Assembly: GCF_003334335.1 (NCBI RefSeq)
Contig: NZ_QOWQ01000004.1
Strand: one strand, 5' to 3'
Origin: Escherichia coli
Lineage (GTDB): Bacteria > Pseudomonadota > Gammaproteobacteria > Enterobacterales > Enterobacteriaceae
Length of the DNA stretch: 64,000 nucleotides
Each line of letters opens with the position of its first letter. Position 1 is the stretch's first letter. Both the position numbers and the translations under genes were made by a program. The notes under the pieces were generated by a model, which was given only the letters and a program-made list of their open reading frames with translations, made no database searches and was not told where the DNA came from. Below, one piece after another: positions 653 through 57,448 of this stretch.

Positions 653-1911
653 TCAAGGCGACGGACAGAAAACTGGTAGTAGGACTGGAGATTGGTACCG
701 CGAAGGTTGCCGCTTTAGTAGGGGAAGTTCTGCCCGACGGTATGGTCAATATCATTGGCGTGGGCAGCTGCCCGTCGCGTGGTATGGATAAAGGCGGGGT
801 GAACGACCTCGAATCCGTGGTCAAGTGCGTACAACGCGCCATTGACCAGGCAGAATTGATGGCAGATTGTCAGATCTCTTCGGTATATCTGGCGCTTTCT
901 GGTAAGCACATCAGCTGCCAGAATGAAATTGGTATGGTGCCTATTTCTGAAGAAGAAGTGACGCAAGAAGATGTGGAAAACGTCGTCCATACCGCGAAAT
1001 CGGTGCGTGTGCGCGATGAGCATCGTGTGCTGCATGTGATCCCGCAAGAGTATGCGATTGACTATCAGGAAGGGATCAAGAATCCGGTAGGACTTTCGGG
1101 CGTGCGGATGCAGGCAAAAGTGCACCTGATCACATGTCACAACGATATGGCGAAAAACATCGTCAAAGCGGTTGAACGTTGTGGGCTGAAAGTTGACCAA
1201 CTGATATTTGCCGGACTGGCATCAAGTTATTCGGTATTGACGGAAGATGAACGTGAACTGGGTGTCTGCGTCGTCGATATCGGTGGTGGTACAATGGATA
1301 TCGCCGTTTATACCGGTGGGGCATTGCGCCACACTAAGGTAATTCCTTATGCTGGCAATGTCGTGACCAGTGATATCGCTTACGCCTTTGGCACGCCGCC
1401 AAGCGACGCCGAAGCGATTAAAGTTCGCCACGGTTGTGCGCTGGGTTCCATCGTTGGAAAAGATGAGAGCGTGGAAGTGCCGAGCGTAGGTGGTCGTCCG
1501 CCACGGAGTCTGCAACGTCAGACACTGGCAGAGGTGATCGAGCCGCGCTATACCGAGCTGCTCAACCTGGTCAACGAAGAGATATTGCAGTTGCAGGAAA
1601 AGCTTCGCCAACAAGGGGTTAAACATCACCTGGCGGCAGGCATTGTATTAACCGGTGGCGCAGCGCAGATCGAAGGTCTTGCAGCCTGTGCTCAGCGCGT
1701 GTTTCATACGCAAGTGCGTATCGGCGCGCCGCTGAACATTACCGGTTTAACGGATTATGCTCAGGAGCCGTATTATTCGACGGCGGTGGGATTGCTTCAC
1801 TATGGGAAAGAGTCACATCTTAACGGTGAAGCTGAAGTAGAAAAACGTGTTACAGCATCAGTTGGCTCGTGGATCAAGCGACTCAATAGTTGGCTGCGAA
1901 AAGAGTTTTAA
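649..1911 (+). CDS. ftsA: Cell division protein FtsA (actin-like ATPase)
   Basis: 420 aa ORF; recognised FtsA sequence; position between ftsQ and ftsZ. Confidence 0.97.
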
Positions 1912-1971
1912 TTTTTATGAGGCCGACGATGATTACGGCCTCAGGCGACAGGCACAAATCGGAGAGAAACT

Positions 1972-3123
1972 ATGTTTGAACCAATGGAACTTACCAATGA
2001 CGCGGTGATTAAAGTCATCGGCGTCGGCGGCGGCGGCGGTAATGCTGTTGAACACATGGTGCGCGAGCGCATTGAAGGTGTTGAATTCTTCGCGGTAAAT
2101 ACCGATGCACAAGCGCTGCGTAAAACAGCGGTTGGACAGACGATTCAAATCGGTAGCGGTATCACCAAAGGACTGGGCGCTGGCGCTAATCCAGAAGTTG
2201 GCCGCAATGCGGCTGATGAGGATCGCGATGCATTGCGTGCGGCGCTGGAAGGTGCAGACATGGTCTTTATTGCTGCGGGTATGGGTGGTGGTACCGGTAC
2301 AGGTGCAGCACCAGTCGTCGCTGAAGTGGCAAAAGATTTGGGTATCCTGACCGTTGCTGTCGTCACTAAGCCTTTCAACTTTGAAGGCAAGAAGCGTATG
2401 GCATTCGCGGAGCAGGGGATCACTGAACTGTCCAAGCATGTGGACTCTCTGATCACTATCCCGAACGACAAACTGCTGAAAGTTCTGGGCCGCGGTATCT
2501 CCCTGCTGGATGCGTTTGGCGCAGCGAACGATGTACTGAAAGGCGCTGTGCAAGGTATCGCTGAACTGATTACTCGTCCGGGTTTGATGAACGTGGACTT
2601 TGCAGACGTACGCACCGTAATGTCTGAGATGGGCTACGCAATGATGGGTTCTGGCGTGGCGAGCGGTGAAGACCGTGCGGAAGAAGCTGCTGAAATGGCT
2701 ATCTCTTCTCCGCTGCTGGAAGATATCGACCTGTCTGGCGCGCGCGGCGTGCTGGTTAACATCACGGCGGGCTTCGACCTGCGTCTGGATGAGTTCGAAA
2801 CGGTAGGTAACACCATCCGTGCATTTGCTTCCGACAACGCGACTGTGGTTATCGGTACTTCTCTTGACCCGGATATGAATGACGAGCTGCGCGTAACCGT
2901 TGTTGCGACAGGTATCGGCATGGACAAACGTCCTGAAATCACTCTGGTGACCAATAAGCAGGTTCAGCAGCCAGTGATGGATCGCTACCAGCAGCATGGG
3001 ATGGCTCCGCTGACCCAGGAGCAGAAGCCGGTTGCTAAAGTCGTGAATGACAATGCGCCGCAAACTGCGAAAGAGCCGGATTATCTGGATATCCCAGCAT
3101 TCCTGCGTAAGCAAGCTGATTAA
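1972..3123 (+). CDS. ftsZ: Cell division GTPase FtsZ
   Basis: 383 aa ORF; tubulin signature GGGTGTG present; SD-like ggagag upstream. Confidence 0.98.
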
Positions 3124-4945: not shown

Positions 4946-7651
4946 ATGCTAATCAAATTGTTAACTAAAGTTTTCGGTAGTCGTAACGATCGCACCCTGC
5001 GCCGGATGCGCAAAGTGGTCAACATCATCAATGCCATGGAACCGGAGATGGAAAAACTCTCCGACGAAGAACTGAAAGGGAAAACCGCAGAGTTTCGTGC
5101 ACGTCTGGAAAAAGGCGAAGTGCTGGAAAATCTGATCCCGGAAGCTTTCGCCGTGGTACGTGAGGCAAGTAAGCGCGTCTTTGGTATGCGTCACTTCGAC
5201 GTTCAGTTACTCGGCGGTATGGTTCTTAACGAACGCTGCATCGCCGAAATGCGTACCGGTGAAGGAAAAACCCTGACCGCAACGCTGCCTGCTTACCTGA
5301 ACGCACTAACCGGTAAAGGCGTGCACGTAGTTACCGTCAACGACTACCTGGCGCAACGTGACGCCGAAAACAACCGTCCGCTGTTTGAATTCCTTGGCCT
5401 GACTGTCGGTATCAACCTGCCGGGCATGCCAGCACCGGCAAAGCGCGAAGCTTACGCAGCTGACATCACTTACGGTACGAACAACGAATACGGCTTTGAC
5501 TACCTGCGCGACAACATGGCGTTCAGCCCTGAAGAACGTGTACAGCGTAAACTGCACTATGCGCTGGTGGACGAAGTGGACTCCATCCTGATCGATGAAG
5601 CGCGTACACCGCTGATCATTTCCGGCCCGGCAGAAGACAGCTCGGAAATGTATAAACGCGTGAATAAAATTATTCCGCACCTGATCCGTCAGGAAAAAGA
5701 AGACTCCGAAACCTTCCAGGGCGAAGGCCACTTCTCGGTGGACGAAAAATCTCGCCAGGTGAACCTGACCGAACGTGGTCTGGTGCTGATTGAAGAACTG
5801 CTGGTGAAAGAGGGCATCATGGATGAAGGGGAGTCTCTGTACTCTCCGGCCAACATCATGCTGATGCACCACGTAACGGCGGCGCTGCGCGCTCATGCGC
5901 TGTTTACCCGTGACGTCGACTACATCGTTAAAGATGGTGAAGTTATCATCGTTGACGAACACACCGGTCGTACCATGCAGGGCCGTCGCTGGTCCGATGG
6001 TCTGCACCAGGCTGTGGAAGCGAAAGAAGGTGTGCAGATCCAGAACGAAAACCAAACGCTGGCTTCGATCACCTTCCAGAACTACTTCCGTCTGTATGAA
6101 AAACTGGCGGGGATGACCGGTACTGCTGATACCGAAGCTTTCGAATTTAGCTCAATCTACAAGCTGGATACCGTCGTTGTTCCGACCAACCGTCCAATGA
6201 TTCGTAAAGATCTGCCGGACCTGGTCTACATGACTGAAGCGGAAAAAATTCAGGCGATCATTGAAGATATCAAAGAACGTACTGCGAAAGGCCAGCCGGT
6301 GCTGGTGGGTACTATCTCCATCGAAAAATCGGAGCTGGTGTCAAACGAACTGACCAAAGCCGGTATTAAGCACAACGTCCTGAACGCCAAATTCCACGCC
6401 AACGAAGCGGCGATTGTTGCTCAGGCAGGTTATCCGGCTGCGGTGACTATCGCGACCAATATGGCGGGTCGTGGTACAGATATTGTGCTCGGTGGTAGCT
6501 GGCAGGCAGAAGTTGCCGCGCTGGAAAATCCGACCGCAGAGCAAATTGAAAAAATTAAAGCCGACTGGCAGGTACGTCACGATGCGGTACTGGAAGCAGG
6601 TGGCCTGCATATCATCGGTACCGAGCGTCACGAATCCCGTCGTATCGATAACCAGTTGCGCGGTCGTTCTGGTCGTCAGGGGGATGCTGGTTCTTCCCGT
6701 TTCTACCTGTCGATGGAAGATGCGCTGATGCGTATTTTTGCTTCCGACCGAGTATCCGGCATGATGCGTAAACTGGGTATGAAGCCAGGCGAAGCCATTG
6801 AACACCCGTGGGTGACTAAAGCGATTGCCAACGCCCAGCGTAAAGTTGAAAGCCGTAACTTCGACATTCGTAAGCAACTGCTGGAATATGATGACGTGGC
6901 TAACGATCAGCGTCGCGCCATTTACTCCCAGCGTAACGAACTGTTGGATGTCAGCGATGTGAGCGAAACCATTAACAGCATTCGTGAAGATGTGTTCAAA
7001 GCGACCATTGATGCCTACATTCCACCACAGTCGCTGGAAGAAATGTGGGATATTCCGGGGCTGCAGGAACGTCTGAAGAACGATTTCGACCTCGATTTGC
7101 CAATTGCCGAGTGGCTGGATAAAGAACCAGAACTGCATGAAGAGACGCTGCGTGAGCGCATTCTGGCGCAGTCCATCGAAGTGTATCAGCGTAAAGAAGA
7201 AGTGGTTGGTGCTGAGATGATGCGTCACTTCGAGAAAGGCGTCATGCTGCAAACGCTTGACTCCCTGTGGAAAGAGCACCTGGCAGCGATGGACTATCTG
7301 CGTCAGGGTATCCACCTGCGTGGCTACGCACAGAAAGATCCGAAGCAGGAATACAAACGTGAATCGTTCTCCATGTTTGCAGCGATGCTGGAGTCGTTGA
7401 AATATGAAGTTATCAGTACGCTGAGCAAAGTTCAGGTACGTATGCCTGAAGAGGTTGAGGAGCTGGAACAACAGCGTCGTATGGAAGCCGAGCGTTTAGC
7501 GCAAATGCAGCAGCTTAGCCATCAGGATGACGACTCTGCAGCCGCAGCTGCACTGGCGGCGCAAACCGGAGAGCGCAAAGTAGGACGTAACGATCCTTGC
7601 CCGTGCGGTTCTGGTAAAAAATACAAGCAGTGCCATGGCCGCCTGCAATAA
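4946..7651 (+). CDS. secA: Preprotein translocase ATPase SecA
   Basis: 901 aa; Walker A GEGKT; C-terminal zinc finger [14 protein letters not shown]. Confidence 0.98.
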
Positions 7652-7669
7652 AAGCTAACTGTTGAAGTA

Positions 7670-7697
7670 AAAGGCGCAGGATTCTGCGCCTTTTTTA
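7670..7697 (+). terminator. Intrinsic terminator after secA
   Basis: GC hairpin aaggcgcagg-attc-tgcgcc followed by a T6 run (approximate coordinates). Confidence 0.75.

Positions 7698-8097: not shown

Positions 8098-8100
<3 letters not shown>
7711..8100 (+). CDS. mutT: 8-oxo-dGTP diphosphatase MutT (Nudix)
   Basis: 129 aa; Nudix box GGKIEMGETPEQAVVRELQEEVGI. Confidence 0.97.
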
Positions 8101-8290
<190 letters not shown>

Positions 8291-8315
8291 GCCTACGTGC
8301 GGCATCAGACAAATG

Positions 8316-53919: not shown

Positions 53920-54399
53920 TTACCATTTGTTTAATTTGTCAAATGCTCTTGTATGTAAGATTTGACGCAACATCTCCCCATCAGGAAACACCAACTCCGG
54001 CGCGATTTCAAACAGCGGCCACAGCATAAATCCACGATTCTTCATATCGTAGTGCGGAACGGTCAGGCGTTCAGTATTTATCACTTCATTACCAAACAGC
54101 ATGATGTCGAGATCCAGCGTGCGTGGTCCCCAGCGTTCAGCTTTGCGGACGCGACCTTGCTGCAATTCAATACGCTGTGTGTGATTGAGTAGCTCTTCAG
54201 GTGCAAGAGAGGTTTCCAGCGCCACGGCTGCGTTTAAGTAATCGGGTTGATCTTGCGGCCCCAGCGGTGGGGTGCGGTAAAACGAAGAAACGGTAAGAAT
54301 GTGGCTTTCAGGGATATCGCCTAATGCTTTCAGGGCAGCATTGACCTGCTCCAGCGGAGAGGCCAGATTGCTGCCTATGGCAATATACGCCACTGTCAT
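53920..54399 (-). CDS. folK: 2-amino-4-hydroxy-6-hydroxymethyldihydropteridine pyrophosphokinase FolK
   Basis: 159 aa ORF recognised; 4-nt overlap with pcnB stop. Confidence 0.96.
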
Positions 54400-55793
54400 G
54401 CGGTACCCTCACGACGTGGTGCGCGTTTGCGTGGACGACGAGTACGACGACGCGGTGACGGTTCTTCATCCAGCTCGTTGAGCATCCCTTTTTGGTCTGG
54501 TGGCGCGGAAACCTGGAACTCACCCCACCATTTCACCAGACGCTGCAGTTCAGCGTTACGCTCAACTTCAGCTCGCAAGGCCAACAGGTCATAAGCCGCA
54601 CGGAACTTAGGATGCTCCAGCAGTTTCCATGCGCGTTTACCCTGACGACGGGACATACGCAACTGCAACTGCCAGATATCGCGGGTTAATGTCGTCAGAC
54701 GTTTCGGGATTGCCAGTGAACGGCAGGCTTCGTCCAGCACGTCGTTCATCGCCAGCGCGAAAGCGTCGTGATAGGTCAGGCCGCTTTCCTGGGCGATCTT
54801 CTGTGCCGTCTCCAGCAGTGGGTACCAGAACATGGCGGCAAACAGGAACGCCGGGTTCACGCGCATATCGTTATGGATACGCGTATCGGTATTCTTCAGC
54901 ACCTGTTCAATGATCCGCTCCATCGGGCTGTCGCCATTTTCCGTGAAGTAGCGGGTAATGGTCGGGAACAGCGGCTGGAACAGATGATATTCACACAACA
55001 GCTTATAGGTTTCGTAACCGTAGCCCGCTTGTAGCAGTTTAAGCGATTCTTCAAACAGGCGTGCCGGTGGGATATCGTTCAGCAGGGTAGCGAGGCGAGG
55101 GATCGGTTCTGCGGTTTCCGGGCTGATGCGCATACCCAATTTGGCGGCAAAACGTACCGCGCGCAGCATACGTACCGGATCTTCACGGTAGCGCGTTTCC
55201 GGGTTACCAATCAGACGGATAACGCCGTCCTTCAGATCCTTCATGCCGCCAACGTAATCACGGACGGTAAAATCCGCTACGCTGTAATACAGGCTGTTGA
55301 TAGTGAAATCGCGGCGCTGGGCGTCTTCTTCGATGGAGCCGAAAATGTTGTCGCGCAGCAACATGCCGTTTTGCCCGCGTTGGGAGGTCGTGCGGTCGCT
55401 GACGTTACCTTCGTGGTGTCCACGGAAGGTCGCAACTTCGATAATCTCCGGGCCAAACATTACATGAGCCAGACGGAAACGGCGACCCACCAGGCGGCAG
55501 TTACGGAACAGTTTGCGCACCTGCTCAGGCGTGGCGTTAGTGGTTACGTCAAAATCTTTCGGCTTTTTGCCAAGTAACAGGTCGCGCACGCCGCCGCCAA
55601 CCAGCCAGGCTTCGTATCCCGCTTTATTGAGCCTGTACATTACCTTCAGGGCATTTTCACTGATATCTTTGCGGGAAATAGCATGCTGCTCACGCGGGAT
55701 CACCGTCACCTGTGGACGGGCGACTGCCTGTTCAGCCTCGCTTTCCTCGCGGCTTAGCACCTTGCGGCAAAAATTAGCGACTCGGGTAAAAAT
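54396..55793 (-). CDS. pcnB: Poly(A) polymerase I PcnB (non-canonical AUU start)
   Basis: 465 aa from Ile codon ATT ([12 protein letters not shown]...); nucleotidyltransferase motif [12 protein letters not shown]; track ORF starts 7 codons upstream. Confidence 0.85.
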
Positions 55794-55852
55794 AGTACAC
55801 CTCGGTAGTGTCAAACATCATTCAGGACAAAAAAATAGCGGCTAATCATAGC

Positions 55853-56779
55853 TCAGCATGACGCATTTGAGAATGTTGAATTTACAATTGCCGACTCGGG
55901 CACGGCGGTAAGCCGCCAGTTTTTGACGGCTGACTGAAGGATTTGCTCGACGCTGAAATCCTGCCAGTGTGCTTCTGCCTGCTGCCCCAGAAATTGAAGT
56001 GCCGCGATTAGTACCGGGCGTGGATCGCCTTTCGGCAGCGCAGGCGCATGATTCTGCTTGGAAAGTTTAGCGCCTTGTGGATTAAGCGCCAGCGGCAGAT
56101 GAATGTAATCTGGCACTTTCCAGCCAAAAAGCTGGTACAGCGAGATTTGCCTTACTGTTGGTTCAATCAGATCAGCCCCACGCACTATTTCTGTAACGCC
56201 CTGGAAATGATCATCAACCACAACAGCCAGGTTGTAGGCGAACAACCCATCACGGCGATGAATGATAAAATCTTCCCGTGCCAGTTTTTCGTCGGCGTGA
56301 ATAATGCCGCGCAGCTGGTCAGTAAATTGCGTGACCGGATGCTGCTGGCGGATACGCACTGCGGCGTTGTCTGGTCCATGATGCAACACCCGGCAATGAC
56401 CGTCGTAAATACCGCCAATGCTTTGAATACGCGCACGCGTACAGGTGCAGTAATAACTTAGTCCTTGTTCATGTAACCAGGCGAGTGCTTCACGATAGGC
56501 GTCGTGACGTTGCGATTGCCAGAGAACATCGCCGTCCCAGTGCAGACCGTAATGTTCCAGCTGGCGCAGGATAGTTTCTGCGGCACCGGGAACTTCACGA
56601 GGCGGGTCGATATCTTCTATGCGTACCAGCCAGCGACCTTGCCGGGCGCGAGCCTGCAAATAGCTGCCGAGCGCGGCGATCAGAGAGCCAAAATGAAGCT
56701 CGCCGGAAGGAGAGGGGGCGAAGCGGCCAATATACTGTGTGTCTGTCATCTCTTTGAACAAAAAATAAGGCGGGAGCAT
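55853..56779 (-). CDS. gluQ: Glutamyl-Q tRNA(Asp) synthetase GluQ (YadB)
   Basis: 308 aa ORF; HIGH-like [12 protein letters not shown] motif; alternative start MTDTQY 10 codons downstream at 56749. Confidence 0.88.
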
Positions 56780-56815: not shown

Positions 56816-57271
56816 TTAGCCAGCCATCTGTTTTTCGCGAATTTCAGCCAGCGTTTTGCAGTCGATGCACAGATCGGCTGTCGGGCGCGCTTCCAGACGG
56901 CGAATACCAATTTCAACACCGCAGGATTCGCAGTAGCCGAAATCTTCGTCTTCCACTTTTTTCAGCGTCTTCTCGATCTTTTTGATCAGCTTACGCTCGC
57001 GATCGCGGTTACGCAGTTCGAGGCTGAACTCTTCTTCCTGGGCTGCACGGTCTACCGGGTCCGGGAAGTTGGCTGCTTCATCCTGCATATGTGTAACGGT
57101 GCGATCGACTTCATCCCTGAGTTGATTACGCCATGCTTCCAGAATACGACGGAAGTGCGCCAGCTGGGCTTCATTCATATACTCTTCGCCCGGCTTCTCC
57201 TGATATGGTTCCACCCCAGCGATGGCGAGAATACTCAGGGACGATGTTTTACGGTTTTGCCCTTCTTGCAT
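56816..57271 (-). CDS. dksA: RNA polymerase-binding transcription factor DksA
   Basis: 151 aa starting [14 protein letters not shown]; C4 zinc finger CESCG...CIDC. Confidence 0.96.
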
Positions 57272-57448
57272 GTTGCTTCTCCTTAACACGCACTATCGAT
57301 CCCCATGTTCGGGGGAAAAATGAGGCCGCTATAAATAGCAGATGCTTTTCCGGATAGCAATTATCTAAACGTAACACTTGACAACTGTGTGAGGAAAAGC
57401 GTATTTGCGCACGCGACCAGAATGTAAATTAACCAGTTACTTACTTTA

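Follow-up and report, generated by a model that had tools for sequence, protein, structure and literature searches.

The pcnB gene in the stretch of DNA analysed here, 64,000 nucleotides of an Escherichia coli contig (NZ_QOWQ01000004.1; hereafter the window), is that of E. coli poly(A) polymerase I (PAP I), and its translation almost certainly begins at a non-canonical AUU codon at window position 55793. The original prediction graded this start as most likely, a grading that proved too cautious: the AUU start is established and already annotated, having been published in 2002 and built into RefSeq, UniProt and NCBIfam. It is supported by the cited literature, as far as its source is quoted in later papers, by the curated annotation and the family model, and by our own comparison of 80 species. 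What this analysis adds is mildly new and descriptive, namely the invariance of the ATT codon and its Shine-Dalgarno (SD) sequence in those 80 species, a minimum of synonymous variation at codons 2-13, and the set of N-termini circulating in databases. The AUU start is, in the later literature citing the 2002 study, the published explanation for the very low level of PAP I in E. coli, and it is also a practical annotation issue, in which the curated references are already right.

The pcnB locus and its reading frame

The minus strand of the window between 53.9 and 57.3 kb carries the E. coli genes dksA, gluQ, pcnB, folK and yadN, and window positions are converted to MG1655 positions by adding 103333. 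The pcnB CDS occupies 54396..55793 on the minus strand and runs from ATT to TGA, comprising 1398 nt, that is 465 codons plus the stop. A mechanical search for open reading frames delimits 54396..55814 on the same strand, a frame of 472 aa with a TTG start and a TGA stop.

Read along the minus strand, the start region begins with TGA TGT, continues with TTG ACA CTA CCG AGG TGT ACT, passes into ATT TTT ACC CGA GTC GCT AAT TTT and ends with TGC CGC AAG GTG. The TGA is an in-frame stop (55820..55818) lying two codons upstream of the TTG that opens the mechanical frame (55812..55814), which is not a conserved start. The ATT (55791..55793) is the eighth codon of that frame and is followed by F-T-R-V-A-N-F. 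Direct reading therefore bears out two elements of the original prediction, that the PcnB N-terminus MFTRVANF starts at an ATT (55793..55791) and that the start drawn by the ORF track, the TTG at 55814..55812, lies seven codons upstream of it. Between the two lies the SD sequence GAGGTG (55798..55803, minus strand), an unbroken run of six bases able to pair with the 3' end of 16S rRNA, separated from the ATT by a 4-nt spacer. Further candidate codons follow downstream in the same frame and strand: a GTG at codon 12 (55758..55760), where many database entries start and which gives a 454-aa version; a GTG at codon 29 (55707..55709), close to where the crystallised or 'mature' protein begins and corresponding to a 437-aa database version; and the first in-frame ATG, codon 52, at the computed position 55638..55640 (414-aa version).

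Upstream, a consensus scan places a sigma-70 promoter-like site, TTCTCA-17-TATGAT, at 55845..55873 on the minus strand, overlapping the 3' end of gluQ. Many of the 80 species, and a more distant relative (CP043324.1, see below), share a segment of the form TATGAT(T/A)(A/G)GCCGC ahead of pcnB, and the site is a candidate for the published pB promoter. The upstream TTG itself forms part of a TTGACA hexamer, whose best -10 element at 17-nt spacing matches only 3 of 6 positions and which is absent from the scan output. An Rfam search at gathering thresholds returned no match at the pcnB locus, all 5 matches in the window lying elsewhere.

At its 3' end pcnB overlaps folK (HPPK; 53920..54399, minus strand) by the 4 nt that had been predicted: the shared ATGA is read at 54396..54399, 54399..54397 being the start codon of folK (ATG) and 54398..54396 the stop codon of pcnB (TGA). 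Of 79 species compared, 39 have ATGA at this junction; the remainder, as read from the printed junctions, mostly have GTGA. Such an overlap suggests that folK translation is probably coupled to that of pcnB.

Conservation of the start region in Enterobacteriaceae

Within E. coli the region is close to uniform. Of 5426 complete genomes, 5425 contain a 321-nt stretch spanning the 5' end of pcnB, in most cases at >=99% identity, and 5416 of those 5425 have the same 81 nt about the start; K-12 and many other strains match both queries at 100% identity. The one variant that was inspected differs in the spacer alone, TACT being replaced by TATT.

More informative is the comparison of the pcnB loci of 80 Enterobacteriaceae species, covering 86-100% protein identity, in which the aligned starts were compared. 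The codon at the aligned start is ATT in all 80, and all 80 carry GAGGTG at a spacing of exactly 4 nt, with variable bases in the spacer and with sequences 5' of the SD that diverge and contain indels. As the codon is invariant, together with an SD at fixed distance, while spacer and upstream sequence vary, the conservation of ATT goes beyond chance. From the ATT to codon 12, only nt 9, 18, 24, 30 and 33 vary, all of them third codon positions, and the 12-residue peptide starting at the ATT is invariant; variation restricted to third positions from the ATT onwards is a coding signature that begins at this codon. As to ribosome binding, the best matches to the anti-SD for the codon at -7, for GTG12 and for codon 29 are 0-4 nt. 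Across these alignments, it is the AUU that is singled out by SD and spacing, over both the UUG and GUG12.

Constraint in the first codons extends to synonymous sites. Codons 2-13 show the lowest third-position variability in the whole gene (0.24 bits, the median being 1.01), ranking first among 428 windows of 12 codons, and a second trough is found at codons 33-48. Reduced synonymous change at 5' ends is general in bacterial genes, and the constraint on codons 2-13 may be just ordinary selection on the initiation region. A more ambitious reading, which we consider rather unlikely, is that a dedicated translational operator is made up of the SD, the 4-nt spacing and codons 2-13, and makes the synthesis of PAP I and, via the [A/G]TGA overlap, of FolK depend on IF3 activity or growth rate.

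RNA structure at the start was considered separately. The 105-nt region folds no better than shuffled sequences (z = +1.1). A small predicted hairpin, pairing the SD with codons 2-4, lies in columns that never vary in the 80 species; it is broken in one of the more distant relatives (JBHLXE010000108.1) and partly so in another (CP043324.1), and was rejected as unsupported.

Relatives beyond the Enterobacteriaceae

Diverse representatives were taken from a search of clusters at 50% identity, and the DNA of seven (L085-L091) was examined. Three of them keep the complete arrangement: CP043324.1 (L085), with 67% identity to E. coli PcnB, reads GAGGTG-tacc-ATT; LR217737.1 (L086; 62%) reads GAGGTG-tcct-ATT; and JBHLXE010000108.1 (L090; 62%) reads GAGGTG-tatt-ATT. 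The arrangement is thus kept even in LR217737.1, a record of 1.08 Mb. The other four are metagenome contigs. In L088 (55%) a GAGGA is followed after 7 nt by ATT ATT ACA AAA GTC (I-I-T-K-V), and L089 (54%) lacks canonical starts from the upstream stop up to the conserved peptide, an ATC being the likely start. L091 (48%) starts at GTG and L087 (45%) at ATG, and the N-termini of these two are similar hydrophobic and basic peptides (VNTIITFIKKLL and MIRKLIKVF).

Equivalent hydrophobic/basic N-termini are found more generally in distant homologues with ATG or GTG starts, which fall at much the same point of the N-terminus, as exemplified by MLQFLKKVF beside the two just given, which indicates that the peptide is genuinely part of the protein across lineages. 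Judged from these DNA comparisons, the ATT start of pcnB is widespread but confined to a certain range of lineages, in agreement with PMC3561954, which relates from Binns & Masters that homologues in many Proteobacteria may use AUU too, and with a remark on a survey in bioRxiv 063800.

Protein identity and database annotation

The identity of the protein is well anchored. The 472-aa frame scores 997 bits against the NCBIfam PcnB equivalog NF008634, whose cut-off is 702, with profile positions 1-468 of 469 aligned to residues 8-471. Position 1 of the model corresponds to residue 8 of the TTG frame, that is to the ATT codon, so the AUU matches the N-terminus of the family. Residues 28-442 of PcnB match the 'Poly(A) polymerase' chains of PDB entries 3AQK, 3AQL and 3AQM with E about 1e-284, and the 3AQM alignment, as printed, is identical to the PcnB of the window at every position. 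The gluQ - pcnB - folK neighbourhood is conserved: L085 and L089 share the order, and in L086-L091 pcnB is linked to folK. Score, structural-enzyme identity and neighbourhood all place the gene within the NF008634 equivalog.

Curated records agree on the start. In NC_000913.3, pcnB (b0143) is annotated at 157729..159126 (1398 nt), which maps to 54396..55793 of the window; the PGAP CDS of K-12 has coordinates that agree with the curated MG1655 record, and WP_010723084.1 is of equal length. The PGAP CDS of O157:H7 EDL933 and of one variant strain have the same length and an ATT start as well, and the UniRef entry named PCNB_ECOLI is the 465-aa version beginning MFTRVANF. Five alternative N-termini nevertheless circulate in public protein collections, and the mis-started versions of 472, 454, 437 and 414 aa are common. 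Gene callers that accept only ATG, GTG and TTG assign pcnB a wrong N-terminus.

Alternative start sites

Three other readings of the start region have to be weighed against the AUU. Translation from the upstream UUG (55814), yielding the 472-aa protein, would rest on this codon being the first canonical start past the in-frame stop, and public collections contain this version on at least 1000 contigs, of which NCBI has named some. [quoted passage not shown] The comparative data point the other way. A canonical codon at -7, TTG or ATG, is found in just 28 of the 80 species, with a TTG elsewhere upstream in 9 more, and in 43 species the stretch from the upstream in-frame stop to the ATT is free of ATG, GTG and TTG; 5 species have an in-frame stop within the seven codons before the ATT, which separates the -7 codon from it. 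Those seven codons show no conservation of a coding type and contain indels. The anti-SD match before the -7 codon is 3-4 nt at most, and the only SD lies downstream of the UUG, inside its would-be CDS. Furthermore, the NCBIfam model and the curated annotations begin at the ATT and not at the UUG. Taken together, the alignments argue strongly that the upstream UUG is not the conserved start, a statement that speaks to conservation and not to the use of the UUG in E. coli itself, and we regard translation of the 472-aa form as highly improbable.

We give scarcely any credence to the proposal that translation starts at GUG codon 12 (55760), with a 454-aa product and the conserved sequence upstream serving as a regulatory 5' leader. 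It would account for the unusual nucleotide-level conservation between the ATT and codon 12; the GTG itself is invariant in all 80 species, and databases widely carry the 454-aa version, which has a UniRef entry and occurs on at least 1000 contigs. On the other hand, GTG12 is without an SD in every one of the 80 species, the best match being 3 nt at a distance of 13 nt, and the five variable sites before it all fall in third positions of the ATT frame, for which the rough chance is (1/3)^5, about 0.004. This pattern over codons 2-11 argues against GTG12 as the only start, as do the distant homologues with ATG or GTG starts whose N-terminal peptides are equivalent.

A shorter isoform made besides the AUU-initiated protein would explain the two bands of western blots and the 'processed' N-terminus. 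It might start at codon 29, which is GUG in the window and AUG in the majority of relatives, or at AUG codon 52 on a transcript from pS1, an internal sigma-S promoter. In 73 of the 80 species codon 29 is ATG, PDB constructs start at residue 28/29, and synonymous variation has its second trough at codons 33-48. PMC2939334 notes that two bands detected with anti-PAP I have been reported, and describes pS1 as an active internal promoter with an SD and an AUG start, '+1(b)', downstream. We take this AUG to be codon 52 because the latter is the first in-frame ATG, and codon 52 is probably also the start that Liu & Parkinson 1989 originally put forward. Against the isoform, codon 29 has an SD in none of the 80 species, and E. 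coli strain E69 has GTA there, which is no start codon, while three Atlantibacter species have ATT; pS1 is active under special conditions only (PMC2939334), and the shorter N-terminus has been ascribed to post-translational cleavage of a leader (PMC9764084). An additional isoform of this kind seems unlikely, and it would add to the AUU start, not contradict it. Purified PAP I is described as being without its N-terminal leader (PMC9764084), so N-terminal sequencing may show a processed end and not the initiation site.

AUU initiation and the low level of PAP I

That initiation at AUU limits PAP I synthesis was reported by Binns & Masters 2002 (Mol Microbiol 44:1287), as that study is cited in PMC2939334, PMC3561954, PMC9764084, PMC4447247, PMC5499595 and bioRxiv 063800. 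In PMC2939334, where promoter positions are counted from the ATT, AUU is termed 'the actual translation start codon'. Infrequent as such starts are, infC and pcnB are given as the two confirmed AUU-initiated genes of E. coli (PMC9764084, PMC4447247, PMC5499595, PMC2830850, bioRxiv 063800). The cell contains about 30-50 molecules of PAP I (PMC3561954), and over-production of the enzyme is toxic (PMC2939334, PMC3561954, PMC9764084), for which reason the start codon can be seen as part of pcnB regulation. A literature search for retapamulin start-site profiling of pcnB yielded only a Staphylococcus aureus paper.

The proposed sequence of events is as follows. The GAGGUG SD, 4 nt upstream, would place the 30S subunit with the AUU in the P site. 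The initiator tRNA would read this codon with a mismatch at the third position, so that the protein carries Met first and begins MFTRVANF, in line with established knowledge of initiation. According to the literature that cites the 2002 study, initiation at AUU is inefficient, so translation would be throttled and PAP I kept scarce. By analogy with infC, IF3 would be expected to discriminate against the AUU of pcnB; in the literature accessible to us we found no statement on a pcnB-specific dependence on IF3, and this link is drawn from infC. The upstream TTG is just the first canonical codon past the in-frame stop, being neither conserved nor provided with an SD. Two of the papers (PMC3561954, PMC9764084) use the wording 'poor ribosome binding site', which is at odds with an SD that is an invariant 6-nt match.

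Comparison with known systems

The gene of the window is the same as E. coli pcnB/PAP I (b0143, PCNB_ECOLI) of Binns & Masters 2002, with agreement in CDS length, start codon and the neighbours gluQ and folK. No difference from the E. coli reference pcnB was seen in the regions compared, and the window carries the reference allele.

With regard to mechanism, pcnB belongs with the AUU-initiated genes of the infC/pcnB type: an AUU stands at the N-terminus of the family, an SD serves the AUU and none serves the alternative starts, and in the orthologues no canonical start accounts for the conserved N-terminal coding region. As in pcnB, the AUU start of infC, the gene of IF3, limits expression, and the use of AUU or AUC is phylogenetically conserved. 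The two genes differ in that infC is autoregulated by its own product, IF3 rejecting non-canonical starts (PMC5499595), whereas the literature found documents no feedback loop for pcnB, whose sensitivity to IF3 is presumed. They differ also in range, AUU or AUC being reported for infC in all bacteria (PMC5499595) while the ATT of pcnB gives way to ATG or GTG in more distant lineages. A further parallel is offered by ebpA of Enterococcus faecalis (PMC4447247), in which a rare ATT start likewise keeps the protein low and which is likewise mis-annotated by callers that accept canonical starts only. EbpA, a pilus tip protein, is unrelated to PcnB in protein and organism, and the likeness is one of principle only.

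Synonymous variability and upstream region of pcnB

Third-position variability along pcnB, taken over the 80 Enterobacteriaceae species of the set, reaches its trough directly after the ATT start, in codons 2-13 (window 55755..55790, minus strand), with 0.24 bits, the lowest value among the 428 twelve-codon windows of the gene, for which the median is 1.01. A second trough lies in codons 33-48, close to the published internal promoter pS1 and an alternative AUG.

Upstream of the ATT codon, the minus strand carries a perfect TTGACA hexamer (window 55809..55814), whose first three bases are the upstream TTG of pcnB. The aligned start regions show the hexamer to be kept across the Escherichia/Citrobacter group, and the consensus scan gave no convincing -10 partner for it. 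Further upstream, E. coli YD786 (NZ_CP013112.1; locus L092, 1189-2397) harbors an IS4-family (ISVsa5) transposase gene between gluQRS and pcnB. The break of this insertion corresponds approximately to window 55861 and lies within the promoter-like -35/-10 pair at 55873..55845, hence pcnB transcription may be altered in this strain. An Rfam scan of the window at gathering-level thresholds yielded no match close to pcnB; the matches obtained elsewhere are PssrA (1891-1980, plus strand), STnc40 (7627-7696, plus), two naRNA4 (8100-8176 and 8216-8293, both plus) and tp2 (19568-19681, minus).

Neighbouring genes and the pcnB/folK junction

Start assignment varies also for gluQ (window 55853..56779, minus strand), for which the curated MG1655 record gives 927 nt and 308 aa from the ATG at window 56779, whereas PGAP gives 897 nt and 298 aa from a start near window 56749. 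Both annotations agree on dksA, with 456 nt and 151 aa, whereas the mechanical ORF (window 56816..57289, minus strand), called from a GTG, has 157 aa; here again, therefore, the annotated start is not the first canonical codon.

At its other end pcnB overlaps folK by the 4 nt ATGA (window 54396..54399). The same junction, compared in the loci L003-L082, is ATGA in 39 of 79 species. Junction sequences of the remaining species, read by eye, are mostly GTGA, which indicates that folK starts with either ATG or GTG and retains the 4-nt overlap with pcnB in either case. The overlap has the same length in two distant relatives (L087 and L088).

pcnB in other genomes and its N-terminal versions

A search of E. 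coli genomes with the pcnB 5' region placed 3 of 5426 matches on records labelled as plasmids, and gave no match in one complete genome. In the locus L085 (CP043324.1, 1201-2698) pcnB is split into two called ORFs, of 316 and 150 aa, reflecting either a frameshift or pseudogene, or an assembly error.

Public protein collections, where the PcnB cluster has 6191 members, contain the exact protein with five N-termini, i.e. versions of 472 aa (TTG), 465 aa (ATT), 454 aa (GTG12), 437 aa (GTG29) and 414 aa (ATG52); the 472-, 465- and 454-aa versions each occur on at least 1000 contigs. Codon 29 (window 55707..55709, minus strand), at which the crystallised PAP I constructs begin, is ATG in 73 of the 80 species. 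The window shares GTG at this codon with three other Escherichia species, whereas E. coli E69 has GTA and three Atlantibacter species have ATT.
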